A program made the position numbers and the translations under genes. The notes beneath the pieces were generated by a model. It was not told the DNA's origin. It was given only the letters and a program-made list of their open reading frames with translations, and did not search any database. A stretch of 64,000 nt of DNA from assembly GCA_045534225.1 (NCBI GenBank), contig JAZSJJ010000005.1, positions 93,712-157,711 of the forward strand, written 5' to 3'. Origin of the DNA: Clostridia bacterium. Its GTDB lineage: Bacteria > Bacillota > Clostridia > TANB77 > CAG-465. This document shows positions 48,241 through 63,682 of this stretch, in pieces. Position 1 is the first letter of the stretch. Each line of letters opens with the position of its first letter.

Positions 48241-48359
48241 AAAATATCACCACTTTCATTTAAATCTTGTAAATAAACTTTTTCTGCTATATAATATACT
48301 ACAGATTGAGTAAAAATTCAAGTAAAAGTAGCGAATTATGGTAGAAATGAGGTAAATTT

Positions 48360-48893
48360 ATGAAGTGTATTATAGGACTAGGTAATATAGGCAAAGAATA
48401 TGAGTATACTAGACATAATATGGGATTTGTAATGCTAGACAAAATAGCTGAAAAAAATAATATAAAGATAGACAAGAAAATGAAGAAATATATCTATGGC
48501 GAAGGTAACATAAACGGTGAAAAAGTATGCTTGGTAAAACCAACTACATATATGAATCTTAGTGGCGAAGCTATAGTAGAGCTTATGAATTGGTACAAAA
48601 TAGATAAAGAAGATATTGCAGTTATATATGATGATATAGACATACCATTTGGAGACGTAAGATATAGATTAAATGGAAGCGCTGGCACTCATAATGGAAT
48701 GAGAAACATTATAGCTATGATTAAAACCGAAGATTTTGCAAGAATAAGAGTTGGTATAGAAAACAGAAATGGAGTACCAATACCACTTGTGGATTATGTT
48801 CTTCAAAGAATGAGTAAAGATGAAATTAAAACAATCGATGATACAATATATAATATAGTAGAAGAAAATGTAAACAAGTTCTTGACAAAATAA
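48360..48893 (+). CDS. pth: peptidyl-tRNA hydrolase
   Basis: MKCIIGLGNIGKEYEYTRHNMGF N terminus and a length of 177 aa. Confidence 0.9.
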   Translation: MKCIIGLGNIGKEYEYTRHNMGFVMLDKIAEKNNIKIDKKMKKYIYGEGNINGEKVCLVKPTTYMNLSGEAIVELMNWYKIDKEDIAVIYDDIDIPFGDVRYRLNGSAGTHNGMRNIIAMIKTEDFARIRVGIENRNGVPIPLVDYVLQRMSKDEIKTIDDTIYNIVEENVNKFLTK

Positions 48894-48997
48894 ACACTTC
48901 GTGTTAAAATATGAGGGTATTTAGTATGAGTTGGGTTAAAAGAGCTTTTAAGGCCACCTATATTCAGCTATAGCAAGCAAGAATTGGAGGAAAAGAA

Positions 48998-49363
48998 ATG
49001 TACGCAATAATTGAAGCATGTGGAAAACAATACAAAGTTTCTGAAGGAGACATTGTTTTCATGGAAAGACTTGATGCAGAAGAAGGAAAAACAGTTACTT
49101 TTGATCAAGTATTACTAGTTTCTGATGACGCAAAAACAGAGGTTGGTGCACCAACTGTTAAAAATGCTAAAGTAACAGCAACTGTTATAGGTCATGGAAA
49201 AGGTAAAAAAGTAAGAGTGTTCAAATACAAAGCTAAAAAGAATGAAAGAAAAGTAAGAGGACACAGATGGTGCTACACTAAAGTTCAAATTGAAAAAATT
49301 GCAACTAAGGCGCCAGCAAAAAAAGCTGAAGCTGCTGAAGCTAAAGAAACAGTAGAAGCTTAA
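48998..49363 (+). CDS. rplU: 50S ribosomal protein L21
   Basis: [18 protein letters not shown] start. Confidence 0.9.
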
Positions 49364-49402
49364 TTAATTTAGAATTGATGTAAAGAAGAGGAGTTGAGAT
49401 AA

Positions 49403-49660
49403 ATGGCACATAAAAAAGGTGGTGGATCTACTAAGAACGGTAGAGACAGTATAGGTAAAAGACTTGGTGCTAAAAGAGCAGATGGACAATTTGTTGAAGC
49501 AGGAAACATTTTAGTAAGACAAAGAGGAACTAAAATACATCCAGGAACAAATGTTGGAATCGGTAAAGACGATACATTATTTGCTAAAGAAAGCGGTATA
49601 CTAAAATTTGAAAGATTAGGTAGAGCTAAAACAAAAGCAAGTGTTTACAAAGAAAATTAA
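49403..49660 (+). CDS. rpmA: 50S ribosomal protein L27 (no N-terminal pro-peptide)
   Basis: [16 protein letters not shown] start. Confidence 0.9.
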
Positions 49661-49767
49661 TTATAAAAAGTGCCTTAAATATAGGGCACTTTTATTGTTT
49701 CTATTAGCTAAATAGTATATAATATAACTTAGAGTTATATATAATGAATATATATGAGGTGAAAGAA

Positions 49768-50793
49768 ATGAAAGAGAAAAAAAGAATATTAACAGGGGAT
49801 AGACCTACTGGTAAGCTACATATAGGACATTACTTTGGTTCATTACAAAACAGAGTAAAACTACAAGATGAATATGAGACATATATTCTTGTAGCAGATG
49901 TTCAAGCTTTAACAGATAATTTTAATAACCCTGCAAAAGTAAGAGAAAATATATTAGAAACAACAATAGATAACTTATCTGCTGGACTTGATCCAAATAA
50001 AGTTACGTTTGTAGTTCAATCAATGGTACCAGAAATAGCAGAACTAACAGTTTTCTATTCTAATTTAGTAACAGTATCTAGACTACAAAGAAATCCGACT
50101 ATTAAAACTGAAATTGCTCAAAAGAAAGAGATATTTGGTAATAGTGGAGAATCTGTAACTTATGGCTTTTTAGGTTATCCAGTATCGCAAGCAGCAGATA
50201 TTACAGCATTTAATGCAGATGTAATACCTGTGGGTGATGACCAATTACCTTTAATTGAACAAACTAGAGAAATAGTTAGAAAGTTTAATTCGCTTTATGG
50301 TGAAGGGGAAGATATTTTAACAGAACCAGAAGCAATACTAAGTAAAAACTCTAGAATTAAGGGCTTAGATGGTGGAGTTAAAATGGGTAAGAGTTTAGGT
50401 AACGCTATATATCTTGCAGATGATGACGAAACAATAAAGAGCAAGGTTATGGGGGCTGTAACAGATCCAGCTAAAATTAGAAAAGATGATCCTGCAAACC
50501 CAGATGTTTGTATGGTTGCATATTACCACAAATTATTTAGCGATGATTCATATGCTACAGTTTGTGAAGAATGTAAAGCGGGAGCTAGAGGATGCGTTAA
50601 TTGTAAACGTGAACTTATAGCTAACATTATTAAAAAGATGGAACCAATCCGTGAAAGAAGAAGATATTATGAAACTCATAAAGAAGAAGTTAAAGATATC
50701 TTAGAAAAAGGAACTAAAAAAGCACGCGAGATTACTAAAGAAACTTTAAGACAAGTAAAAAGTGCTATGAAGATAGATTATTTTGAAGAATAA
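49768..50793 (+). CDS. trpS: tryptophan--tRNA ligase
   Basis: HIGH motif (GKLHIGHYFG) and KMSKS motif (VKMGKSLGN). The start was moved to the ATG with a GAGGTG RBS. Confidence 0.85.
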   Translation: MKEKKRILTGDRPTGKLHIGHYFGSLQNRVKLQDEYETYILVADVQALTDNFNNPAKVRENILETTIDNLSAGLDPNKVTFVVQSMVPEIAELTVFYSNLVTVSRLQRNPTIKTEIAQKKEIFGNSGESVTYGFLGYPVSQAADITAFNADVIPVGDDQLPLIEQTREIVRKFNSLYGEGEDILTEPEAILSKNSRIKGLDGGVKMGKSLGNAIYLADDDETIKSKVMGAVTDPAKIRKDDPANPDVCMVAYYHKLFSDDSYATVCEECKAGARGCVNCKRELIANIIKKMEPIRERRRYYETHKEEVKDILEKGTKKAREITKETLRQVKSAMKIDYFEE

Positions 50794-50817
50794 TTAAATT
50801 AACATAGGAGGAAAAAT

Positions 50818-52254
50818 ATGATTGCAGAATGTGCACTTTTAGGTGCAGGTGCAGTTGTTGCATCTGATGCAGTGAAAATAGAATATTTAAAAAGCAAACA
50901 CCGTGAATTAACTGATGCAGAAAAACATGAATTCATGTCTGATGATTCTAGACGTTTTATTCATTTTACATCAGAAGCGAGTGCTAAAAGAATAATGCAA
51001 TCGGGTTTCTTAATTCCAACTAAAGGTGTGGTAAACAATCATTTTACTAGAAGTATGGATTCTAGAGGTAGAACTCGTGATTCGGAAATGGTATATATGT
51101 TTGATTCTGCAACTTTTAGTGTAGATGATTATATACGCAACTTGCCAATAAAACGTTCACCGTTTAACGGCTGTTATGAATATTATGCAATAAGTACCAA
51201 GCCAAATAAATATGATATACATGATTTTAGAAAAAGAGCTCAGGATGGAGCGATTACATATGAAGGTAGATTAGATATTGATGGTACAGATACAAGACTT
51301 GTTAAATATGCGTTAACATTGGACGAGCAGGGAGAATATACATTTACAGAAATGGCAATGGACGCAGAATATACACCAACACCAGAACTACTAGCGAAAC
51401 TAGAGAAAGACAAAACAACAGCCATAGGATATATAGCAAAAACATATATGTCTGAAGTAAGAAAATCTAAAGAATCTATGAGAAGATTTAGAGCAGAAAA
51501 AGATATATATAAAGAGCAAATAAGAAGAAAAAAAGAATTAGCTAAGGCTAATAGACAGTTTGCTCAAGAAGAAAAGGATAAATCATATATATATGAACAA
51601 GATGGTAGAACAATAGTAGTTAAGAATATAGAATATGAACAAGTAGGTGGAAAGAAACTTCAAAAAATAGCAATAATGGAAAGAGAAGATGAAAGTAAAA
51701 AATCTAAACCTAGTATGACATTTTGTTATATGGATGAATTAGATGTATCTAAACTTGAACCAGAAGTTGCTAGTAAATATTTTTTCACTAACCATGATGA
51801 GGCTAGAAATAGCAAAAGCAAAATGCCTAGATATATTGGTATGCCGCTTTTAAATCTTGAAACAGGTGAAGTAGTAAATGAATATGATACAACCATAGAT
51901 AAAGATTTTAGAGCACATATGGATAGAAAGTATAAAACAAGTGAAGCTTTGGAAGAAAGATACGAAAAAGTTAAAAAAAGTAGAGGGATAGTTGCTAAAG
52001 TAAAATCAATGTTTTTGAGAATATTTAAGAAGGAACAACCTTTGACATTATCTGAAGCCGAAGCAGATAGACAAAGATTAGCAGATATGGGATATTCAAG
52101 TGTTGAAGCTATGAATAATGACGATAGAGATGCAAAAATGTTTAAACTTCTAGAAGATGGAACATATCCACCGGAAGAAGTTGCAACATACGATTTAACA
52201 AACGAAAGACAAGATACATTAATGTGTGAACCAAGAGAAGTAGAGGAGAAATAA
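50818..52254 (+). CDS. hypothetical protein (478 aa), translationally coupled to obg
   Basis: Strong AGGAGG RBS. Its stop codon abuts the obg start (52254/52255). No recognisable motif. Confidence 0.5.
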   Translation: MIAECALLGAGAVVASDAVKIEYLKSKHRELTDAEKHEFMSDDSRRFIHFTSEASAKRIMQSGFLIPTKGVVNNHFTRSMDSRGRTRDSEMVYMFDSATFSVDDYIRNLPIKRSPFNGCYEYYAISTKPNKYDIHDFRKRAQDGAITYEGRLDIDGTDTRLVKYALTLDEQGEYTFTEMAMDAEYTPTPELLAKLEKDKTTAIGYIAKTYMSEVRKSKESMRRFRAEKDIYKEQIRRKKELAKANRQFAQEEKDKSYIYEQDGRTIVVKNIEYEQVGGKKLQKIAIMEREDESKKSKPSMTFCYMDELDVSKLEPEVASKYFFTNHDEARNSKSKMPRYIGMPLLNLETGEVVNEYDTTIDKDFRAHMDRKYKTSEALEERYEKVKKSRGIVAKVKSMFLRIFKKEQPLTLSEAEADRQRLADMGYSSVEAMNNDDRDAKMFKLLEDGTYPPEEVATYDLTNERQDTLMCEPREVEEK

Positions 52255-53541
52255 ATGTTTGTAGATTATACTAAAATAAAAGTAAAAGCAGGCGATGGTG
52301 GCAATGGAGCAATGACATTCCACAGAGAAAAATATGTAGATAGCGGCGGACCAGACGGTGGAGATGGCGGCCGTGGCGGAAGCATAATCTTCAGAGTACA
52401 TCCTGGTATGAATACATTAATAAACTTTAGTTATAATAAAAAAATATTTGCTAAAAATGGCGAAAATGGTGCAAAGAAAAATTGTGCAGGTAAAAGCGCA
52501 GAAGATGTTTATGTAGATGTACCAAAAGGAACAGTTGTAAGAGATTTAGAAAATGGTAAGATTATAGCAGACTTAAATAAAGATGATTCTGTAGCAGTAA
52601 TAGCTAAAGGTGGTCGTGGAGGTAAAGGTAACCAACATTTTGCAAACTCTGTAAGACAAGCTCCAAGATTTTCGGAACAAGGTGAACCAGGTGAAGAAAA
52701 AGAACTTGAACTTGAACTTAAACTAATAGCAGATGTAGGACTTGTAGGATTCCCTAATGTAGGCAAATCTACATTAATATCTATGGTATCATCAGCAAAA
52801 CCTAAGATTGCAAATTATCACTTTACAACATTAGAACCAAGTTTAGGTGTTGTAACCGCAAAAGATGGTTCGTCATTTGTAATGGCAGATATACCTGGAA
52901 TTATTGAAGGAGCAGCTGAAGGTGTAGGTCTTGGAATTAAATTCTTAAGACACATTGAAAGAAATAAAATATTACTTCATGTAATAGATATATCTGGAAG
53001 TGAAGACCGTGATCCTATAGATGACTACTATACAATAAATGTTGAACTCAGAAAGTTTAGTGAAAAACTAGCAGAGAAGAAACAAATAATTGTAGCGAAT
53101 AAGATAGATGTTATGACAGATGAATCTAAACTAGAAGAATTAAAAGAAGTAGCTGCTAAAGATGGCCGCGAAGTAGTAGCAATATCTGCTGCAACTAATA
53201 TAAATGTAAAAGAATTAGTTGAAATAGTAGCTAAAGCGTTAAAAGAACTTCCTGAAGAAGAAATGGAAGATACAGATGAAGAAGTATTTACAATTTCATT
53301 AGACAAGCGTAATAAAGGTGAAGAAGAATTTAAGATAGACATTATAGAATGTGAATATACAGTAACTGGACCATCGATAGATAAACTTATGAGAAGAGTT
53401 AATGTAGAAGATTTTGAATCTAGACAATACATGCAACGTTCACTAAAACTTATGGGAGTAATGGATGAATTAAGAAAAATGGGTATTGAAGCAGGGGATA
53501 CTGTGGATATCAAAGGCTTTAAGTTTAACTGGGAAGAATAA
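52255..53541 (+). CDS. obg: GTPase Obg
   Basis: Gly-rich Obg fold (MFVDYTKIKVKAGDGGNGAMTFHREKYV), G domain (GFPNVGKST) and a C-terminal TGS-like domain. Confidence 0.9.
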   Translation: MFVDYTKIKVKAGDGGNGAMTFHREKYVDSGGPDGGDGGRGGSIIFRVHPGMNTLINFSYNKKIFAKNGENGAKKNCAGKSAEDVYVDVPKGTVVRDLENGKIIADLNKDDSVAVIAKGGRGGKGNQHFANSVRQAPRFSEQGEPGEEKELELELKLIADVGLVGFPNVGKSTLISMVSSAKPKIANYHFTTLEPSLGVVTAKDGSSFVMADIPGIIEGAAEGVGLGIKFLRHIERNKILLHVIDISGSEDRDPIDDYYTINVELRKFSEKLAEKKQIIVANKIDVMTDESKLEELKEVAAKDGREVVAISAATNINVKELVEIVAKALKELPEEEMEDTDEEVFTISLDKRNKGEEEFKIDIIECEYTVTGPSIDKLMRRVNVEDFESRQYMQRSLKLMGVMDELRKMGIEAGDTVDIKGFKFNWEE

Positions 53542-53582
53542 AATGTACAAGAATATAATAGATTGTACAAGGAGGAGTTAAA

Positions 53583-53837
53583 ATGGAAATATTAGGACTT
53601 ATAGGTGGAGTAATTGCATTAATAATAATTGTAAGATTATTATTATGCCCAATAAAAGTGTTTTTTAAGTTATTAATAAATGCAGCAGTTGGTTTAGTAA
53701 TACTATTTATATTTAATCATTTTGGTTTGATGTTAGTAGGATTTACAATTCCAATAAACTTTATAACTGCAGCAATAGTTGGTATACTTGGAATACCAGG
53801 AATTTTAGGACTAATCGCATATTTTATGTTTTTTTAA
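53583..53837 (+). CDS. bofA: pro-sigma-K processing inhibitor BofA
   Basis: 84-aa membrane protein with the BofA signature INFITAAIVGILGIPGILGLI (B. subtilis BofA has INLVTTAISGFLGIPGIAALV). Confidence 0.7.
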   Translation: MEILGLIGGVIALIIIVRLLLCPIKVFFKLLINAAVGLVILFIFNHFGLMLVGFTIPINFITAAIVGILGIPGILGLIAYFMFF

Positions 53838-53889
53838 TTAAGTAAATAATTGAAATTTAATCCCGCTTATGGTAAAATTCTTACCATAG

Positions 53890-53963
53890 GCGGGATTAGT
53901 TTAGTGGTAGAATACAAGGCTTCCGATCTTTTGGCGTGGGTTCGATTCCCACATCTCGCTCCA
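53890..53963 (+). tRNA. tRNA-Gly (anticodon TCC), atypical
   Basis: Acceptor stem gcgggat / atctcgc, T-arm gtggg-ttcgatt-cccac, anticodon loop cttccga, CCA end. Unusual features are a C-U mismatch at the top of the anticodon stem and G at position 37. Confidence 0.6.
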
Positions 53964-54045
53964 TTTTAAAACAACTTGCGAACTATCGTAGGTTGTTATT
54001 TTTGTATATACAATGTTCTCTTGCTAGAAAGGGGGACATTTTTTA

Positions 54046-54173
54046 TGCTTGAATTTAAGATAATACAAGAATTAAAGCCAAATACTGAAATACTAGAAAT
54101 CATTAAAAACTACACTTACAAAACTAAAAATGGAAATATAAATGGGTTCGGAAGAATAAGACTCACATATTAA
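54046..54173 (+). CDS. hypothetical small protein (42 aa), possibly a gene remnant
   Basis: GGGGGA RBS followed by an ATG. It lies in AT-rich DNA next to the tRNA together with other short ORF fragments. Confidence 0.25.
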
Positions 54174-54588
54174 AAAGAACATAAACAAGCACTTTATACA
54201 ACACTTTTAATGACAAATGAGCTTACAAATCATCTTATTCTAGTAAGTAAAAATGCAGAAGATTTGCTAAATAATTTGATGGAAAGTTACAAAGAAACTG
54301 ACGAAAAATTATCTGAAAAAAAAGTAAAGCAATGAATCAAATTGAGTGGGTTAAACTAATGAATAATTACAAAAATATAGTAGAAGAAATTATATTAAAA
54401 GAATATATTTTTATATAAGAAAATGTAAAAAAAGAGGAAAAAATTATACAATAATTTATATTTTTAGCTAATGTGGGAGTAAAAAATTAAAATAGCCAGC
54501 ACTGAATTTGTACTCCCATACAAATTCATATGTGGGGAAAATCCCCAACCTCCCTTAAATTTTGAAAAATAATAATTAGAAAAAAATA

Positions 54589-54629
54589 CAATGAAGATTT
54601 CATTTTCTACATTGTATTTAATTTTATTA
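54589..54629 (-). terminator. rho-independent terminator of the minus-strand four-gene operon
   Basis: Inverted repeat aatacaatg ... cattgtatt with a 15-nt loop, followed on the minus strand by a T-run. Confidence 0.5.
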
Positions 54630-54633
54630 AATA

Positions 54634-55293
54634 TTAATAATTTGCATTCCACTCTGATAAAAATTCATTTACAAAATCTTTCATAAAATTGGTTCTTTTT
54701 TCAGCAAGTTCTTTGGCTGTTTTTGTATTCATATTATCACCAAGTTTAAATAGTTTATGATAGAAATGATGTATTGTAGATTCATCATCCCCATTAGATT
54801 CGGCATAATCGTTTTTTTCATTTAATGGAGCACTAGGATCGTACATAACAACATTGTGTGCACCACCATAAGAAAAAGTTCTCCCAATTCCAATAGCACC
54901 TATAGCATCTAAATTATCTGCATCTTGCAATATTAAAGTGTTTATATCATCAACATTATTTCCATTCCAATTATATTGTTCGTGATATTCAATACAATAA
55001 CATATCTTTTCAACTTGTTCATTAGTTAAATCTATTTTTGATAATATATTTCTAATAGTATCTAAAGAATCTTTTGGAGAAACAAAAGTACCTGTTTCAT
55101 TTTGCATTATTCTATGTACATCATGAAGAAAAGCAGCAACACCTATTACAATTCTATCTCCACCTTCTTTTGCTTGAAGATACAATGCAGTGTTCATTGT
55201 TCTTTCTAAATGACTAATATCGTGACCACTAGAATCTTTTTTAAATAATTCGATTACAAGAGGTCTTAAATCTTCTATATATTTTTCTAACAT
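54634..55293 (-). CDS. HD-domain phosphohydrolase
   Basis: H..HD..H..H..D pattern (SGHDISHLERT ... FLHDVHR ... QDADNLDAIG). Confidence 0.7.
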   Translation of the reverse strand: MLEKYIEDLRPLVIELFKKDSSGHDISHLERTMNTALYLQAKEGGDRIVIGVAAFLHDVHRIMQNETGTFVSPKDSLDTIRNILSKIDLTNEQVEKICYCIEYHEQYNWNGNNVDDINTLILQDADNLDAIGAIGIGRTFSYGGAHNVVMYDPSAPLNEKNDYAESNGDDESTIHHFYHKLFKLGDNMNTKTAKELAEKRTNFMKDFVNEFLSEWNANY

Positions 55294-55304
55294 ATTAATC
55301 CTCC

Positions 55305-56468
55305 TTAAAAATCTTTAAATATTTTCTCTAAGTTTTGTAAGGCTATTTTTAGTTTTTCTTTAGGTAAGGCTATATTGATTCTTTGAAATCCTTTACCAGA
55401 ACTACCAAACATTTTTCCGTTATCTAACCATAATTTTGCTTCTTTAATCATTAATTCTTCTATTTTATCATCTGATAAATTTAATTCATTAAAATCTAAC
55501 CAAAGAAGATATGTTCCCTCGGGATAAATTAATTTAATCTTTGGTAATCTTTCTTTTAAAAATATATCTACATAATTTATATTATCTAACAAATATTTTT
55601 TTAATTCATTTAACCAATTCTGACCTTTTTCATAAGCTGATTGGCAAGCAACTAACCCCATTATATTTATAAGGCTATAGCCTGTATTCCATAATTCTAA
55701 TTGGAATTTTTCACGAATTTCTTCATTTGGTATAAATATATTAGATACTTGTAATCCAGCTAAGTTAAATGTTTTTGTTGGAGCAGTACAAAGTATTACT
55801 TGATTTTGAATATCTGTACAATTTAATATACAAGTATGATTTCCTTTCCAAATAAAATCGCTATGTATCTCATCACAAACAATAAATACATTATATCTTT
55901 TGCAAATTTCAATAATTTTATTTAATTCATTTTTAGTCCAGACTTTACCAACTGGATTATGAGGAGAACACAACAAATATGCTTTAACATTATATTGTTT
56001 AATTTTATTTTCAAAATCTTCAAAATCTATTTCATAATGACCATTTGTTAGTACTAAATCACTACTTACAATTTTTCTTTTATTATCTTTTACGACTTCA
56101 GTAAATGGATAATAAACAGGATTATTTATTAATACACAATCATTTTCTTGAGTAAGTGTTTTTACTGCTGTTGCTAGAGCAAATACTATACCGGGAGTTA
56201 TTACAAGCCACTCTTGTTTTAACTCTACATTATGATTTTGTTTATACCAATTTTCAATCGCATTAAAATATGTCTCATCATTTTTAGAATATCCAAATAC
56301 TCCGTGGTCTATTTTTTTATGCATATCATTTAATATTTCTTCGCAACATTTAAAATCCATATCAGCGACCCACATAGGAAATACATCATCTGGCTTATTC
56401 TTATCAGATTTAAAATCGTATTTTAAACTATTAGTTTTGTTTCTATTTATTTCTTCGTCAAAATTCAT
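55305..56468 (-). CDS. patB: PLP-dependent C-S lyase (MalY/PatB family aminotransferase class I/II)
   Basis: The VFPMWVADMDF motif and a length of 387 aa are typical of MalY/PatB cystathionine beta-lyases. Confidence 0.7.
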   Translation of the reverse strand: MNFDEEINRNKTNSLKYDFKSDKNKPDDVFPMWVADMDFKCCEEILNDMHKKIDHGVFGYSKNDETYFNAIENWYKQNHNVELKQEWLVITPGIVFALATAVKTLTQENDCVLINNPVYYPFTEVVKDNKRKIVSSDLVLTNGHYEIDFEDFENKIKQYNVKAYLLCSPHNPVGKVWTKNELNKIIEICKRYNVFIVCDEIHSDFIWKGNHTCILNCTDIQNQVILCTAPTKTFNLAGLQVSNIFIPNEEIREKFQLELWNTGYSLINIMGLVACQSAYEKGQNWLNELKKYLLDNINYVDIFLKERLPKIKLIYPEGTYLLWLDFNELNLSDDKIEELMIKEAKLWLDNGKMFGSSGKGFQRINIALPKEKLKIALQNLEKIFKDF

Positions 56469-56480
56469 ATTTTACCTCCT

Positions 56481-57305
56481 TTAATTATTTTCTATTTCTT
56501 CTAAAATTTTATTCCAATCATCTCTATATAAAGCATTAGTTAATATATTTTCTAAATATATGTTATATATATTTTCATTATATGTGGGTTGAACCAAAGG
56601 CATATTAGCCATCAGAAATAATAGAACAGCTAAAGTTTTATCATCTGTTTTTTCAAAAAATATTCCTCTTGTATCATTGAAACTTATTTGACCTTTACAA
56701 GAATTTATAATTGTGTAATCTCCAGCAACAATAACATCAAATTGATGTATACGTTTTATTTTATTATCTTTATAAAAATTTAAAATAGTATCAATTAATT
56801 TTTCAATATCAGAATATGTTTTCTCTGCATATAGGATAGTAGGAATTTTATATGTATATTCATTTTTATCTTTTTCCCAAATGAGACCATTTCTAACTCT
56901 AGTCAATTCTTTTACACTTTTTATTTGTTTGAGTGCTCTTTCAATTTCATCCTTATCGCATAAAGCCCCTTTAATCTCCACTGCATAATCTACACCATCT
57001 GCAAAAATAACTGATGCCTTTTTATTTTTTATATCTATGGTATGTGGATGTGATGGATCAAGTATTATACAATCTATAGATGCACTTCTTTTATTATAAC
57101 TATCTATAATATTTCCTTTTGTAATTCTATAAGGAAAAGGAAAATATTTTTCAAAAAAGGAGTGAAATATTTCTTCTCGTCTATCTGCAATTTCTTGTGG
57201 AGTACCTTTTCCTTCAACAGAAGCTTTAGACAAACCTAATTTTAATTCTTGATATTCTAACTCTAACAATTTAATAAATTCATCATTCATTCTTAAGTTC
57301 TCCAT
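56481..57305 (-). CDS. hypothetical protein with a possible PD-(D/E)XK nuclease-like motif
   Basis: SIDCIILD ... (27 aa) ... VDYAVEIKG fits the hhhD ... hhhExK core. GC is about 25%. The ORF overlaps the upstream gene by 23 nt. Confidence 0.4.
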   Translation of the reverse strand: MENLRMNDEFIKLLELEYQELKLGLSKASVEGKGTPQEIADRREEIFHSFFEKYFPFPYRITKGNIIDSYNKRSASIDCIILDPSHPHTIDIKNKKASVIFADGVDYAVEIKGALCDKDEIERALKQIKSVKELTRVRNGLIWEKDKNEYTYKIPTILYAEKTYSDIEKLIDTILNFYKDNKIKRIHQFDVIVAGDYTIINSCKGQISFNDTRGIFFEKTDDKTLAVLLFLMANMPLVQPTYNENIYNIYLENILTNALYRDDWNKILEEIENN

Positions 57306-58011
57306 TCTTAGTTTTTTCTATACTTTCCATAATTTTGCATAAATGTATTCCTAAATACGTAAATGTAAAACAAAGATATGTATTAAATGAATCAGTCATT
57401 TTATTTGGAATATATTTTGATAATTTTATAAAATTGTTATATGATAGTTTTTCAAATACATTGAATATATTTGAACTTTCTTGACTTGGCATTAGAGTAA
57501 GTGATTCTCCAATTATCAAACTATTCTCATTACTAACAAAATCATCTTTATTTACACGATATTCATAATTCATTATTAAATCGGGAACAAATTCATAATT
57601 ATTGCCAATTTCTTTTTTTAAATGATTTACATCAAATTTTTCATTTCCTCGTTTTTTCCAAAGATTAAAGTATAACACATCTATATCATTTTTTGTTAAT
57701 TTCATAAAACCATCAATAATATTTTCGAAGTTGTCTTCTGACATATTTAATATATTTACTGCTATTTCAATAAAATAATCTGATTCTTCAGATAACGCTT
57801 TTACAATTAGATTTTTGATTTTATATCTATTGATAATCTTGTATTGAAATATATCAAATTCTTGTAATTTTTTATTTAAAATATCTATTTTTTCATTTAT
57901 AATTTCTATTTCATCAACACTTAAATAAGAATTTAAGTATCCATTCATTAGAGAGCCAATTGTACCATAAGAATTTATTTTTAAATTACTACAATTTTTT
58001 ATTTGTTGCAT
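57283..58011 (-). CDS. hypothetical protein (first gene of an AT-rich four-gene operon)
   Basis: 242 aa with no recognisable motif. GC is about 25%. Candidate extended -10 upstream (ttgtataat on the minus strand). Confidence 0.45.
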   Translation of the reverse strand: MQQIKNCSNLKINSYGTIGSLMNGYLNSYLSVDEIEIINEKIDILNKKLQEFDIFQYKIINRYKIKNLIVKALSEESDYFIEIAVNILNMSEDNFENIIDGFMKLTKNDIDVLYFNLWKKRGNEKFDVNHLKKEIGNNYEFVPDLIMNYEYRVNKDDFVSNENSLIIGESLTLMPSQESSNIFNVFEKLSYNNFIKLSKYIPNKMTDSFNTYLCFTFTYLGIHLCKIMESIEKTKNGELKNE

Positions 58012-58218
58012 TAAAGACCTCCTTAAAATAAGAGTTTAAATCAATATAATTATACAATAAAATATAAAAAATTCCCATACTTCCTTGAAAAAATATGGGA
58101 ATTACAATATAATGTTTTTAGAAAGAGAGCGTTGTAGTTCGTAAGCTGTAGCTTAATCGCTCCATCATTAATTAAGGAAAATAAAATTATAAAAATATAA
58201 TTGTTAAAAATGTTAATA

Positions 58219-58251
58219 AAACAAAGCACCCAACAGGGTGCTTTGTTGTTT
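58219..58251. terminator. bidirectional terminator
   Basis: Hairpin aaacaaagcaccc-aaca-gggtgctttgttt. Confidence 0.7.
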
Positions 58252-58253
58252 AA

Positions 58254-59261
58254 TCAATTATTTTGTTCATTTACATCATATTCATCAAAGATGTTTCCTA
58301 CAATTTCTTCTAGGATATCTTCTAATGTTACTATACCTACATATTTGTTGTTGTCTCTAACTATAGCCATATTTTCGTATGCTCCATTTAGTATAAGGAA
58401 TGCATCGTCTATTATAGTATCAGAATCTAGTATTTTTACTTTACGTAGATATCTGTATAGGCTAAATTCTTTATCTCTGCCCAGTATTAAGTCTTTAATG
58501 TTAATAATACCTAGAATCTTTTCACCTTCCATGACAGGAAATCTTGTAAATTTAGATTCTCTAATTTTAGAAATTATAGTTTCGTTGCTATCTGATGTAT
58601 CTATGTATACTACGTTATCTTTTTTAGTCATAATATCTTTAATTGTTATATCGTTAAATTCAAATACTCTAAGTAGTAGCTTCTTTTCTAATTCCTCTAG
58701 GTTTGAGTCTACAATTGTATCTTTTATCTCATCCTCATCTTCGTCTTTAGGAGGAGATATCTTTAACAATTTTTCTAAAGCGTTTGTAGACAACTTTAAT
58801 ATTAATATGAATGGTTTGAATATTAATATAACAAAGTTAATTATATTTACCATTTTGTAAGCTATTTTTTCTGGATTTGCTATACCTATTTTTTTAGGTA
58901 CTAGTTCGCCAAATACAAGTGTAAAATATGAAAGGATTATTGTTATAACTACGATTAATATGTTTATTTGCATAGCTTCAGAAATAAATGGAATATGAAT
59001 ATATTCTGCTATTTCGCTTGCAAAACTATCTGCTGCAAATGCGCTTGCTAAAAATCCAGATAAAGTTATTGCTACCTGTATGGCAGATAAGAACGTACTT
59101 GAGTCATTAAGTAGACTTACAATCCTTTTTGCTTTTTTGTTACCTTTCTTAACTTCTTTACTAAGTTTGTATTTATTTAAAGATAGAAACGCTATTTCAG
59201 TTGAAGAGAATATGCCGTTTACTATTATAAGAATAATTAGAATTAATATTTTAATTAACAT
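58254..59261 (-). CDS. HlyC/CorC (CNNM) family transporter with DUF21 and CBS domains
   Basis: N-terminal DUF21 four-helix transmembrane region, then tandem CBS domains and a CorC_HlyC-like C terminus. Confidence 0.7.
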   Translation of the reverse strand: MLIKILILIILIIVNGIFSSTEIAFLSLNKYKLSKEVKKGNKKAKRIVSLLNDSSTFLSAIQVAITLSGFLASAFAADSFASEIAEYIHIPFISEAMQINILIVVITIILSYFTLVFGELVPKKIGIANPEKIAYKMVNIINFVILIFKPFILILKLSTNALEKLLKISPPKDEDEDEIKDTIVDSNLEELEKKLLLRVFEFNDITIKDIMTKKDNVVYIDTSDSNETIISKIRESKFTRFPVMEGEKILGIINIKDLILGRDKEFSLYRYLRKVKILDSDTIIDDAFLILNGAYENMAIVRDNNKYVGIVTLEDILEEIVGNIFDEYDVNEQNN

Positions 59262-59346
59262 GTTAATCCTCCGTTAATGTGTAGTATATCATTAAGTAAA
59301 AAAATATACTATATCTAAATAATAAAAAGTGTAAAAAATGTATAAT

Positions 59347-59375
59347 TTGCAAAACTACCTGCATAGTGGTATAAT
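59347..59375 (+). promoter_or_regulatory. sigma-A promoter with an extended -10 (TTGCAA-17-tgGTATAAT)
   Basis: Consensus-like hexamers about 65 nt upstream of the ATG at 59439. Confidence 0.5.
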
Positions 59376-59438
59376 ATTAAAGCACGAAAAAATTAAGTCG
59401 AAATTTTTAATAAAATAAATTTAAGGAGATATATAATT

Positions 59439-59828
59439 ATGTTTTTTAAGAAGAAACGGAAAGGAGATGAACCAAAGAAACTATTTGTAAGGGTAGATGA
59501 CGTATATATTGCAACAAGCAATCTTAAAGCAAATTGCAATGACGGAAAAGGCTTTTACGAAAAAAAGGTAACACTATTTTACTTAGCGCTTAAGGTATCT
59601 TACGGGTACAAAGAATTGTTTACTGGTAGGGACCTGTGCCTTGATGAAGATGAAGAGTTTTTAGACATTCCATTTATACAAAAAGTAGAACCTTTAAGGG
59701 ATTACTTAGGCGATTATGAACAGGAAGAGATAAGCTATACAGCTCTTTTTGATATAATTGCAACGATAAATGCAATGGTAAAACTCGGTAGTTTAGAAAA
59801 TACAAAGAAAGGTAGAAAGAGGGCATGA
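59439..59828 (+). CDS. hypothetical protein
   Basis: AAGGAG RBS, 129 aa, codon usage rich in AAG and CTT. Confidence 0.5.
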   Translation: MFFKKKRKGDEPKKLFVRVDDVYIATSNLKANCNDGKGFYEKKVTLFYLALKVSYGYKELFTGRDLCLDEDEEFLDIPFIQKVEPLRDYLGDYEQEEISYTALFDIIATINAMVKLGSLENTKKGRKRA

Positions 59829-60172
59829 ATGTTGGACGATTGGACATTATTATAGTAAAAAGAGAACTCGAAGAAAAACGTAAAGAGTTCGATAGAATTT
59901 CTGTTAATATGTCGCTTGAAGAAAAGCTTGAATGGATAAGAAACTTCTTTAACGAATATGTTCCTGAACTAGAGAAACGGTATATGACAGAACAGGAACT
60001 TGAAGAGTGGATTTTCTTACCGGATGAGCTTAGAATTTGGTTTTATCATTACTTTCCTGAACATGGACTTAACATGGCAAAGTACACAGAACAGCTTATG
60101 CACGATTTTCATTGGGAAGGACATAAGAGATTCCAAACAGTGGATAGAAGATTTTTTAGCCATTACGATTAA
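59825..60172 (+). CDS. hypothetical protein
   Basis: ATGA start/stop overlap with the upstream gene, which indicates translational coupling. 115 aa. Confidence 0.5.
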   Translation: MNVGRLDIIIVKRELEEKRKEFDRISVNMSLEEKLEWIRNFFNEYVPELEKRYMTEQELEEWIFLPDELRIWFYHYFPEHGLNMAKYTEQLMHDFHWEGHKRFQTVDRRFFSHYD

Positions 60173-60206
60173 CAAAAAGAGCAACTTAAAAGTTGCTCTT
60201 TTTGCG
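60173..60206 (+). terminator. rho-independent terminator
   Basis: Hairpin aaaaagagcaactt-aaa-agttgctcttttt. Confidence 0.75.
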
Positions 60207-60340
60207 TATATAATAATATTATATAAATAATATAAAATTTCTGTAAAATTATGTGAATTTTTGCGGTTTAGGTATACAAAAACAAACCTTTGTGATATAT
60301 TTTAATATAGAATTTTATAGGTTAAAAAGAAGGAGAAAGT

Positions 60341-63300
60341 ATGTTAAAGTTAAAGGGTATAACAAAAACATATGTTACTGCAAACGATAAAGTAGAAGCA
60401 TTAAAAGGAATAGATATAGAATTTAGAAAAGCAGAATTTGTATCTATACTTGGACAAAGCGGTTGCGGCAAGACAACATTATTAAATATTATAGGTGGAT
60501 TAGACAGATATACTAAAGGAGATTTAATAATTAATGGTAAATCTACTAAAGAGTTTAAGGATAGAGATTGGGATAGTTACAGAAACCACAGCGTAGGTTT
60601 TGTATTTCAAAGCTATAATTTGATACCACACCAAACAGTCTTAGCAAACGTAGAACTTGCATTAACTATAGGTGGTATATCTAAAAAAGCAAGACGTGAA
60701 AGAGCGAAGGTTGCTTTAGAGTTAGTAGGGCTTGGAGATCAAATACACAAAAAACCAAACCAATTATCTGGCGGACAAATGCAAAGAGTTGCAATAGCAA
60801 GAGCACTTGTTAACAATCCAGAGATTATTCTAGCAGACGAACCAACTGGTGCGTTAGATACAAAGACAAGTGTGCAAATAATGGAGATACTAAAAGAAGT
60901 ATCTAAAGATAGACTAGTTATAATGGTTACGCACAACCCAGAACTTGCTGAAACGTATTCTACAAGAATAGTTAAAATACGCGATGGAGAGCTTTTAGAT
61001 GACTCTAAACCATTTGATAGTTCTGTGGAAAAAGAGGAAAAACAACAGGCAAAAGCAAACAAAAAGCTTTCAATGTCAATATTTACAGCACTTTCTTTAA
61101 GCTTAAATAATTTGCTTACTAAGAAGGGGCGTACAATACTTACATCATTTGCAGGTTCAATAGGTATAATAGGTATCGCAATGATACTTTCACTATCTAC
61201 TGGTTTCCAAAACTATATAGATAAGATACAAGAAGACACACTAACATCGTACCCGTTCCAAATAACATCAGAAACGGCAGATGGAGCATCAATGCTTTTA
61301 TCTATGACAGGTGCAATGTCAGAAAATAATGCTACCGGGGAAAATGTAAAGGAAACTCAAAATATCCGTGAGATGTTTACTAAGATCGGAACAAATGATT
61401 TGAAATCTTTCAAATACCATTTAGAAAAGAATAAATCTGAAGTAGATAAGATGGTATCATTTACAAGATACACATATGGTATAACACCAATAATATATAC
61501 TAAAGATGTTACTGGTGAAATAGCAAAATTAAATCCAAGTAATTTAATGAATAGTATTAGTGGAAATTCTTCAGCTGGAACAATAATGTCATCTGCGGGT
61601 ATAACAGTATTTAATGAACTTGTAGATAACCAGGAAATGATAGAAGAACAATATGAACTACTAAAAGGTGATTGGCCAAAAGCATATAACGAAGTAATAA
61701 TAATACTTCCAAAACCAAATCAAATATCTGATATGCTACTTTACGGACTAGGTTTAAGAGATTTAGACGAGCTTGAGGATATGATAGCAGATATCATTCA
61801 ACAAAAAGAAGTAACAAATGACTCTAAACCTTTAGAGTATACATATGATGATCTTATGAATTTAACATTTAAGTTAGTTGATGCAAGTTCGTTATATAAA
61901 TACAACAGTAAATATGGAATATATGAGAACAAAGAAAATGACAAAGAATTTATAGAAAACATATATAACAAAGCAGAGAGAGTTAAAGTAGTTGGTATAG
62001 TAACACCAAAATCTAGTGAAAGTATGAGTATGCTAGCAGGTGTAGGATATACTAAAGCGCTTACAGAACATGTAATTAAAACAGCGGCTAAATCTGAAAT
62101 AGTAAAGAAACAATTGGCAGATAACGATGTAAATGTATTTAGTGGTAAAAACTTTGATGATGATGAAGAAAAAATGGGATTAGATTTCGAGGATATGATA
62201 TCTATAGATAAGAATATGCTAGCGTCAGCGTTTGGTGGTAATGTTAGCGAGAAAACAATTACAGATATGACTACTGGATATATGACTGAAATATCTAATG
62301 CCATAACAGTAAATACGTTACAAGCAGAAGTAGCATTTACTACAACATTAGAAACATTGACTAAAGAAATGTTAACTAACTATATAAAAGAAAATGCAGT
62401 TATGGGAATGGCAACAATGAAATTAAGCGTAGTAGATGCAGAAGTAGATAAGTATTTAAATACTGCGTCTGCAAAAGCTCATTTAGCAAAGTTAGAAAAA
62501 GATTATGTTGTACCTGTTTCTGTATTTAAGGATACATATGCTCAAATGATAAAAGGTTTCTTAAAAGGATATATAATGACTACTGGTAATGCAGGTAATA
62601 ATGGAAACGTAGATATATATAACGAAGAACTGGCAGGTATGTTTATGGAACAAATGGTAGAACCATTAGTTCAAGCTTTTGTAGCGCAAGATGCAATAAA
62701 AGTAGCTGGTACTCAAATGGGAGCTGCTATGACAGAAGCTACAATGCAAAAAACAATATTAACTAAAGTTGGTGAGTTAACAGCAAAACTTGCAGAAACT
62801 ATGGCAGGAGCATTCAAAGTAGATGAAAAGAAAATAGCTGCAGCATTTAAATTTGATATGAGTGAAGATGAAATAAGAAGCATAATAGAAACAATGACTA
62901 ATACTTCTACAGTACAAAATGCAACAACAAATTTAATAATGTTAGGTTATCAAGATTTAAATTCACCGACAACAATGCAGTTCTATTTTGAAAACTTCGA
63001 AAACAAAGAAAAATTCATTTCATTTTTAGATGCATACAATGATAAGATGGAAAAAGAAGATGACGAAAAAGTTATAAAATACACAGATGTAACAGGTATA
63101 TTAATGTCATCAGTAAAAGTAATAGTAGATAGTGTAAGCTATGTATTAATCGCGTTTGTAAGTATATCACTTGTTGTATCATCAATAATGATAGGAATAA
63201 TTACATACATTTCTGTACTAGAACGTACTAAAGAAATAGGTGTGTTAAGAGCAATTGGTGCTTCTAAGAAAGATATTTCTAGAGTGTTCAATGCAGAAAC

Positions 63301-63538
63301 ATTTATAGTAGGATTACTAGCAGGTTTAATAGGTATAGGTGCAACACTTATATTATTAGTACCAACAAATGCAATAATTCATGCGGCAACAAACAATCCT
63401 AATATTATAGCAGTGCTTCCAACAGTAGGTGGAATTGTACTTGTAATATTAAGTGTAATTCTTACATTAATAGGCGGATTAATACCATCTAAGTTAGCAA
63501 GTAAGAAAGATCCAGTTATTGCACTTAGAACAGAATAA
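60341..63538 (+). CDS. ABC transporter ATP-binding protein / FtsX-family permease fusion (MacB-like)
   Basis: N-terminal ABC ATPase ([34 protein letters not shown]), a large extracytoplasmic region, and a C-terminal FtsX four-transmembrane domain. Confidence 0.8.
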
Positions 63539-63682
63539 TATAAAAAAGAAATCAAGAGAAATCTTGGTTTCTTTTTTTATTGTTTTTGTTTAATATTTTG
63601 TAAATTATTATTATAAGTGATAAAACTACTTGTGTAAAAGGCCAATATGTTATAGAATAAAGAAATAAAGAGGGGTAAACAA

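Follow-up and report, generated by a model that had tools for sequence, protein, structure and literature searches.

NucC is the textbook nuclease that is switched on by a cyclic trinucleotide. It is the effector of the cyclic-oligonucleotide-based antiphage signaling system (CBASS) and of type III CRISPR (clustered regularly interspaced short palindromic repeats) systems and is activated by cyclic triadenylate (cA3), which is bound by its residue Arg53; this arginine is essential for activation (10.1101/694703). One member of the DUF6602 family, Damona, is reported to be a single-gene anti-phage cassette of the chromosomal integron of Vibrio cholerae (10.1101/2024.07.02.601686). Here we analyze a stretch of 64,000 nucleotides from a Clostridia bacterium (assembly GCA_045534225.1, contig JAZSJJ010000005.1, positions 93,712 to 157,711), which we call the window and to which all positions refer unless another locus is named. 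Next to a tRNA-Gly(TCC) gene the window carries an AT-rich island with four minus-strand genes, A to D. Gene A is an orphan, B codes for a DUF6602 endonuclease with a predicted NucC fold, C for a PatB-type lyase and D for an HD-domain phosphohydrolase. It is virtually certain, in our view, that the island as a whole is a decayed integrative element at tRNA-Gly. On balance we also favor the combined statement that this decayed element carries A and B as a defence module in which A controls B.

A recombinase-less element at tRNA-Gly(TCC)

Contigs with an empty site were chosen via the cluster-mates that two window proteins, Obg and CNNM, have in metagenome-assembled genomes (MAGs) named 'Clostridia bacterium'; the accession numbers of these cluster-mates are two apart, and thus only BofA lies between them. 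The four contigs (L028-L031) are about 91% identical to the window at the DNA level and keep the whole synteny. In each of them BofA and tRNA-Gly(TCC) are directly followed by the CNNM ('hemolysin-family') gene, with 214 nt from BofA to CNNM, and the four genes of the island are absent. The blastn alignment with L028 falls into two blocks of about 91% identity, window 48044-53964 and window 58157-63590, which share exactly 9 nt, TCGCTCCAT. The empty site reads ...CACATCTCGCTCCA|TCATTAATTAAGG..., that is, the 3′ end of the tRNA is joined straight to position 58165 onward. From the shared nucleotides and the empty-site sequence it follows that 4,201 bp (53965-58165) were inserted and that the insertion is bordered by a 9-bp direct repeat, with the left copy at 53956-53964 (attL core) and the right copy at 58157-58165 (attR core). 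In at least 14 independent loci the DNA homology to the window ends at 58164/58165 and the flanks past that point are unrelated; these loci were reached through homologs of A and come from unrelated metagenomes and MAGs. The insertion is thus precise with its core repeated at both junctions, and it was site-specific recombination that brought the element into the tRNA-Gly(TCC) gene at its 3′ end.

The target gene (53890-53963, plus strand; found by ARAGORN, 62.4 bits against Rfam RF00005), which holds attB in its 3′ end, was left intact. Its exact string also occurs in L028 and L029, genomes without the island; the tRNA is therefore not atypical, as a first-pass annotation of the window had called it. 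An Rfam scan of the region returned the tRNA only, the remainder being noise. The GC content is 22-26% over 54-59 kb and about 31% elsewhere in the window. The exact insertion has 24.9%, while the remainder of the window has 31.7% (z = -4.8); the value of the insertion is below the minimum (28.9%) of 514 other windows of 4.2 kb. Both this composition and the empty sites bear out the first-pass view of an AT-rich, horizontally acquired island at a tRNA 3′ end, and the relatives answer the synteny question it had raised, namely whether bofA and the tRNA elsewhere adjoin the hemolysin-family gene directly. Its weak attR candidate, the octamer TCGCTCCA at 58157-58164 (four copies in the window, 0.5 expected), marks the real right junction according to the blastn comparison with the empty site; the repeat is 9 bp long and not 8 bp. 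The further similarity upstream of the octamer (gtagttcg) is out of register with the tRNA and belongs instead to the conserved recombination arm of the element.

The island belongs to a family whose elements measure about 6 kb, occur in uncultured low-GC Firmicutes and insert at tRNA 3′ ends. A complete element opens with the right end and a 15-bp terminator hairpin, continues with a promoter region, the cargo, TnpV, a large serine recombinase of 596 aa and orf92/94, and closes with the left end. Complete elements adjoin tRNA-Gly(TCC) in L016, L024, L032 and L038 and tRNA-Thr(CGT) in L009. The recombinase has matches to the Resolvase, Recombinase and Zn ribbon domains and resembles Ccr and XisF, which are its nearest NCBIfam models, although it scores below their cutoffs. 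The left end of the complete elements, which directly follows the tRNA CCA, can be aligned with the window from 53965 on (TTTTAAAACAACTTGCGAACT...). This conserved, recombinase-proximal end (53965-54045, plus strand; TTT(T/G)AAA(A/T)CAACTT(G/A)CG(A/G)AC in the alignment with L009, L016, L024, L032 and L038) contains a 12-bp hairpin at 53970-53997 and a second one at 54012-54040 (fold z = -5.0), which appear as terminator-like sites in a scan. The right-end backbone (58041-58165, minus strand) comprises the arm AGAAAGAGAGCGTT(G/A)T(A/G)GTTCGTAAGCTGT...CGCTCCA, the 15-bp hairpin at 58070-58103 and a -10-like box. It is 82-97% identical among elements with different cargo, including L032 and L038, both of which are without A. 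None of 200 shuffled sequences folds as well as this hairpin, which was also found by a terminator scan. The TATAAT downstream of the hairpin and ahead of gene A is a predicted -10 box; the promoter scan did no better than on shuffled sequence (53 sites, 49.8 expected). More than 25 loci contain the right end and at least eight contain the left end, with flanks that part exactly at the core; independent copies in different genomes share the same conserved ends.

Compared with L038 the window copy has lost about 2.2 kb: the recombinase gene is gone entirely, TnpV lacks approximately its first 19 codons, and of orf94 the greater part is missing. The homology with L038 leaps from position 10566 to 8339 of that locus at the deletion junction, and a 16-nt overlap at this point (54121-54136) suggests microhomology. 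On one side of the junction remains an N-terminal stub of the backbone orf92/94 (54046-54136, plus strand), whose start MLEFK... aligns with orf92 of L009 and which ends at the junction. On the other side lies a frameshifted TnpV pseudogene (54123-54415, plus strand) without its first 19 or so codons, found by tblastn in two frames (PF14198, E = 8.5e-20 on the joined frames). The short open reading frame (ORF) fragments seen in the first pass at 54046-54440 do exist and are these two remnants. A tblastn search with two recombinase types gave no match within the 64-kb window, whereas the sister elements L009, L016, L024, L032 and L038 each have a recombinase of their own. With the recombinase deleted and TnpV a pseudogene the window copy is unable to move on its own; it is a recombinase-less deletion derivative of a family that carries TnpV and a large serine recombinase.

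Elements of the family also stack head to tail (L001 at 10766 and 12478, L004 at 3041 and 4753). Hybrid right|left junctions (…GG(C/T)TCCA|TTTGAAATCAACTTACG…) divide the cargo blocks within the stacks, and in L001 and L004 only the last unit retains TnpV and the recombinase; the arrangement is reminiscent of a cassette array, with a serine recombinase as its driver. At the left ends of L033, L036 and L039 and in L038 (972-4522) the element adjoins a different element with Mob_Pre and a serine recombinase of 639 aa. The tRNA-Gly genes beside the sister elements L038 (10750-10823) and L032 (9648-9721) show one difference in the 3′ acceptor strand (CATCCGCTCCA vs CACCCGCTCCA). The element could supply part of the tRNA 3′ end on integration, and the crossover would then lie upstream of the GCTCCA core. 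In the window a long hairpin (53861-53897) is found directly upstream of tRNA-Gly, with the 5′ acceptor strand of the tRNA as its 3′ arm (AATCCCGC…GCGGGATT). It is kept in L028-L031 with wobble-compatible changes and could be the terminator of BofA or influence tRNA processing. Outside the element, an ORF of 478 aa without Pfam match (50818-52254) ends where Obg starts (52254/52255) and holds the same position in L028-L031, and two overlapping plus-strand ORFs of 129 and 115 aa (59439-60172) between the CNNM gene and an ABC transporter have no family match and are conserved in related genomes.

Interchangeable cargo of the element family

The four genes code for proteins of 242, 274 or 269, 387 and 219 aa and are separated, from B onward, by gaps of 12 and 11 nt. 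Gene C (55305-56468, minus strand) is a PatB/MalY-type pyridoxal phosphate (PLP)-dependent C-S lyase; it belongs to PatB, with 436.2 bits against TIGR04350 (cutoff 340) over residues 3-383 of 387. An exact look-up of this protein found no contig. Gene D (54634-55293, minus strand) is a YedJ-like HD-domain phosphohydrolase (PF01966, E = 1.9e-8; PRK10119, 104 bits, below its cutoff), which among phages has distant matches only. Past gene D an AT-rich hairpin with a U7 tract (54578-54619, minus strand) is revealed by RNA folding, though missed by a consensus scan, and is the probable intrinsic terminator of the cargo operon. The minus-strand operon, the lyase, the HD protein, a PD-(D/E)XK-like second protein and a terminator after the last gene had all been recognized in the first pass and hold; only the overlap between the first two genes, which had been given as 23 nt, is in fact 8 nt.

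The window cargo is a recombinant of two lineages. The part from 55293 to 58164, which reaches from PatB through B and A to the right end, shares 97.0% identity with L016, L011 and L012, which carry A-B-PatB-NUDIX-TnpV. The part from 54121 to 56468 (TnpV, HD and PatB) is 93.0% identical to L038 and L039, which carry Abi_alpha-PatB-HD-TnpV. The homology to L016 stops exactly at the start codon of the HD gene. About 60 related loci show the cargo to be a mosaic whose slots are interchangeable. The first slot is filled by A-B in about 33 loci and otherwise by Abi_alpha, by two unknown genes (202 and 113 aa), or by a fusion of A with a serine hydrolase followed by an APH-type kinase. In the second slot we find most often a 342-aa protein (u342), and else PatB or a nucleoside hydrolase. 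PatB is followed by HD, NUDIX (similar to isopentenyl diphosphate isomerase and YfcD), an SDR-type dehydrogenase or nothing, with spacers of about 11-12 nt; a comparison of window 55294-55304 with L012 2980-2991, and of L047 (4128-4883) and L053, shows that this exchange is a cassette-like replacement at gene boundaries. PatB is also found downstream of Abi_alpha in L038-42. Cluster-mates of HD and PatB with at least 90% identity occur in MAGs named 'Bacilli', while the relatives of the host are named 'Clostridia', and the 'Bacilli' copies lie in the same kind of element.

The protein u342 (for example L001 9547-10575) is the commonest gene after A-B. It is 98-100% conserved across human-gut contigs and has no match in Pfam, PADLOC or PHROGs.

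The four genes are an operon and not one system. They would be co-transcribed from the promoter of the backbone. Since the right-end hairpin and the promoter region are conserved whatever the cargo, the cargo is most likely read from this predicted promoter and shielded from the convergent CNNM transcript. PatB and HD are probably unrelated passenger genes. The idea that PatB requires a nucleotide phosphohydrolase as partner, which the swap of HD and NUDIX could suggest, was rejected, as an SDR-type dehydrogenase or nothing can follow PatB.

A nuclease with predicted NucC fold and its orphan neighbor

Gene B (56481-57290, minus strand) codes for 269 aa when read from its conserved start and for 274 aa from 57305. 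The protein is a member of DUF6602 (PF20247, 70.2 bits, gathering cutoff 27, E = 1.5e-19). It also matches the NucC model of PADLOC (E = 2.6e-17) and cas-associated PD_DExK models. A profile match to NucC 7zgv (E = 5.9e-9) is limited to residues ~31-137, whereas the AlphaFold2 model (predicted local distance difference test, pLDDT, 89.6) matches NucC over the whole chain (best E = 1.6e-12, template modeling (TM) score 0.61-0.68, about 256 aligned columns). With Foldseek the top 14 matches in the PDB are all NucC (E = 1.6e-12 to 1e-9, TM 0.53-0.70) and the next fold follows at E > 0.2. The model has the restriction-endonuclease-like fold of the NucC type including the trimer embellishments. The active site SID73...E105-I/V-K107 is invariant in 29 homologs and aligns column for column with the IDx30EAK motif of the Ec, Pa, Vm and Serratia NucC; compared with NucC (Asp73, Glu104, Lys106), B has a spacing of x31, and its middle residue, A in NucC, is replaced by I or V.

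The ligand site is different. Arg53 of Ec NucC aligns with a proline, Pro53, that is invariant in the B family (the numbering of both proteins coincides from 36 to 73), and Tyr81 of NucC aligns with an invariant His81. The sequence alignment ends at about residue 137 and assigns no counterpart to positions 136, 141 and 226 of NucC, where the gate-loop latch His136/Tyr141 and the cA3-binding Thr226/Val227 lie. The model of B shows no β-hairpin at 128-150. We found no CD-NTase, Cas10 or other cyclase in the element or in the approximately 60 related loci, where gene lists were inspected and only the four cargo proteins of the window themselves were scanned. B has kept the NucC fold, as modeled, and an intact active site and has lost one essential cA3 ligand. 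It is NucC-like but is no NucC proper, since both Arg53 and the cyclase partner define that group. B has no match in phages. Its relatives at 46-54% identity are solo genes; one belongs to a defence island with AbiA-HEPN and BrnT/A, another immediately follows an MmeI-type restriction-modification gene, and a third occupies the moron position of a prophage.

Gene A (57283-58011, minus strand; 242 aa) is translationally coupled to B and consists of an N-terminal helical domain and a C-terminal α/β domain. It has no known relative. Neither Pfam, NCBIfam, PADLOC nor PHROGs contain a match, and a scan of 21 members of the A family at E <= 5 gave scattered noise only, for example BAR in 4 of 21. 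A profile search of 1.84e9 representatives returned 27 matches, about three of which are full-length clusters, all of its own family; phage records, plasmid records and IMG/VR returned none. Although its model is of fair quality (pLDDT 81.8), Foldseek found no significant match in the PDB (best E = 0.69) or in BFVD (best E = 0.14). Profile and structure searches of the first two proteins, as proposed in the first pass, have thus placed B in DUF6602 with a NucC fold and left A without match. The first-pass statement that the gene combination matches no system that can be named holds for A, but not for the nuclease, as the DUF6602 member Damona is reported to be anti-phage. A is present in 12 of 185,579 species genomes, all of them uncultured low-GC MAGs. 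It is also found beside a CHAT protease, and other neighbors match the PADLOC candidates PDC-S22, PDC-M11B (a 184-aa protein) and PDC-S66/SAVED_CHAT. We had considered A as a backbone gene of the element; this was rejected, for A is the first gene inside the right end whenever present and yet absent from sister elements with an identical backbone.

Several findings tie A to B. B starts at 57290 with MNDEF... and overlaps A by 8 nt, ATGAATGA. Every homologous lineage begins B at MN(D/E)EF, and other lineages have a 1-nt gap instead. The two genes are adjacent in about 33 loci and at least two element types, with overlap or 1-nt gap conserved; in the second element type KilA-N-A-B is followed by a serine recombinase of 400 aa. 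A and B co-diverge with r = 0.98 over seven lineages, and all inspectable B genes with more than about 69% identity have A upstream. In about 16 human-gut contigs of a widespread lineage (L027, L069-L083) one internal deletion has cut A at residue 122 and removed B, of which L083 retains residues 99-268. The downstream 342-aa gene stays 99% identical in these loci. Inactivation of A-B is thus either repeated or persistent, and such a loss beside a maintained neighbor is a pattern typical of costly, dispensable defence or toxin genes. A flavor of defence also comes from the sister elements, in which Abi_alpha fills the same slot.

The KilA-N protein directly upstream of A-B (L005 7152-8000, L020 3218-4063) matches the PADLOC single-gene candidate PDC-S22 (E = 3.8e-116), and in L047 (86-868) a relative of it with 47% identity adjoins A-B on the opposite strand.

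We suggest that A-B is most likely a functional unit, a two-gene abortive-infection or defence module with B as its putative DNA-degrading effector. We lean slightly toward a role of A-B in defence or addiction, whereas it is possible but doubtful that A acts as the direct controller of B. In the proposed mechanism, the PD-(D/E)xK endonuclease B would degrade DNA as the effector, A would take the place of the cyclic trinucleotide signal as its controller, and A might do so by gating the trimer-to-hexamer assembly that activates nucleases of the NucC type. Still more tentative is a joint proposal of wider reach. A could be an unseen kind of controller for NucC-fold nucleases (a sensor, an activator or the maker of a new signal) which is portable among effectors, and its carriers would be the serine-recombinase counterpart of integron cassettes, that is, small units stacked head to tail at tRNA-Gly which trade their defence genes at one constant place, the first slot after a common promoter. 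If true, A-B would be a minimal 'signal-free NucC' immune system, and the effectors wired to A would be a nuclease, proteins of the PUA-like and TPR kinds, or a hydrolase paired with a kinase.

A number of points weigh against the module. A has no recognizable domain or fold and hence its role is pure inference; the link of A-B to phage resistance or toxicity is likewise inferred. A occurs without B, either with a TPR protein, with a PUA/ASCH-like protein of 184 aa, as a serine-hydrolase fusion with a kinase, or alone. DUF6602 nucleases in turn work or exist without A, so that A and B could act independently. Charge complementarity between A and B was not seen, which we regard as uninformative. 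A-B-PatB is found in three lineages (window/L016, L047 and L053) and a link to PatB is possible. The negative result for cyclases covers the elements and related loci, and a cA3-producing CBASS or type III CRISPR system may be present elsewhere in the host. Finally, the operon terminator and the promoter are predictions.

There is a modest chance that A-B is an addiction module of the toxin-antitoxin type which stabilizes the element or a tandem array, with B as toxin nuclease and A as labile or stoichiometric inhibitor. An upstream gene that is translationally coupled and overlaps with a nuclease gene is the classic type II order, the pair travels with a mobile element, both genes are inherited together (again r = 0.98) and were lost jointly in the gut lineage, and no locus of the clade has an intact B without A. 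However, A is large (242 aa), has no match among antitoxin or DNA-binding families, shows no charge complementarity to B, and pairs with partners that do not look like toxins (the TPR protein and the PUA-like protein), and solo DUF6602 genes persist without an A-like antitoxin. Addiction and defence are not mutually exclusive. Unlikely, in our view, is that both genes are merely neighbors, B being a single-gene defence nuclease of the Damona type and A a regulator, exclusion or anti-defence factor that is expressed first. That DUF6602 proteins occur and work alone, that A is met with other genes or alone, and that A, where present, invariably comes first after the right end would all fit. Against independence speak the 8-nt ATGAATGA overlap or 1-nt gap kept across lineages and two element backbones, the tight co-divergence, the single gut-lineage deletion that takes part of A together with B, and the A upstream of each inspectable B above about 69% identity. 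We prefer the functional unit of A and B.

This unit could be larger and comprise all four genes, for instance if the PLP enzyme and the phosphohydrolase make or destroy a signal that controls the nuclease. The spacing of 11-12 nt behind a single upstream promoter region, the recurrence of A-B-PatB in three lineages and the two different nucleotide-type hydrolases, HD or NUDIX, in the last slot are in line with this idea. We nevertheless consider it very improbable, because two lineages have recombined in the window operon, PatB-HD also follows Abi_alpha without A-B, HD follows the unrelated 202-aa and 113-aa genes without PatB, the slot after PatB can be taken by an SDR-type dehydrogenase or be empty, the commonest architecture A-B-u342 contains neither PatB nor HD, and neither of them is present where A-B lies between KilA-N and a recombinase. 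The chance that the region is native AT-rich chromosomal DNA with a housekeeping operon for sulfur or nucleotide metabolism is practically nil. PatB and HD are ordinary enzyme families and the third-position GC content of the four genes (0.11-0.14) is close to that of neighboring core genes, but the precise empty sites in four related contigs refute this explanation, and the identical element ends in unrelated genomes, the TnpV pseudogene and the HD and PatB copies of at least 90% identity in 'Bacilli' MAGs, as opposed to the 'Clostridia' MAGs of the host relatives, contradict it as well.

Comparison with known systems

For the host genome the consequence is one of annotation: the region is a dead mobile element and not a metabolic operon. 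A-B is a clean and testable candidate, though rare and confined to uncultured hosts, and B offers a direct route to the question how NucC-fold nucleases are controlled without nucleotide signaling. The element family has attB, attL and attR sites at tRNA-Gly(TCC) defined to the base pair, its hosts being uncultured Firmicutes of gut and digester. It could yield new candidates for defence genes through 'guilt by slot' as well as a site-specific integrase whose target is known and conserved universally.

NucC (PDB 6P7O, 6P7P, 6Q1H, 6UXF and 7ZGV) is the only significant fold match of B. Both proteins share the whole-chain fold, the active site, a similar length and defence contexts. B differs by the proline in place of Arg53, by the histidine in place of Tyr81 and by its coupling to the orphan A, and no gene for a CD-NTase, HORMA/TRIP13 or Cas10 is found near B. 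Damona shares with B the PF20247 domain as well as cross-hits to two kinds of model, cas-associated PD_DExK and the small endonuclease of CBASS, and both are small, cassette-like cargo on a platform driven by a recombinase. In Damona, however, a single gene suffices, whereas B in its clade is always preceded by A; this comparison is made at the level of domains. Damona further belongs to another phylum and to an integron with tyrosine integrase and attC sites, while B resides on a serine-recombinase element at a tRNA.

Among mobile elements, Tn4451/Tn4453 (TnpX and TnpV) are similar in that a large serine recombinase adjoins a TnpV gene, in their small size and in their Firmicute hosts, and some relatives of our element carry NikA-like or Mob_Pre mobilization genes. 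Tn4451 targets GA-dinucleotide sites and carries catP together with tnpYZW. The family described here, in contrast, targets the GCTCCA 3′ end of tRNA-Gly or tRNA-Thr, carries defence-like cargo and forms head-to-tail arrays. TnpV (PF14198) is the only component shown to be shared. With tRNA-linked islands and SCCmec (Ccr) the family shares the site-specific mode of insertion, with the 3′ end of a conserved gene as target, the core direct repeat, the deviant composition, the defence cargo, the tandem accretion and the decay to recombinase-less remnants. As a decayed integrative element at a tRNA the island itself is thus of an ordinary kind. The family is unusual, however: tRNA-linked islands usually rely on tyrosine integrases, whereas its members combine a serine recombinase at tRNA 3′ ends, a very small size (about 4-6 kb) and a layout of ordered, swappable cargo slots behind one promoter.

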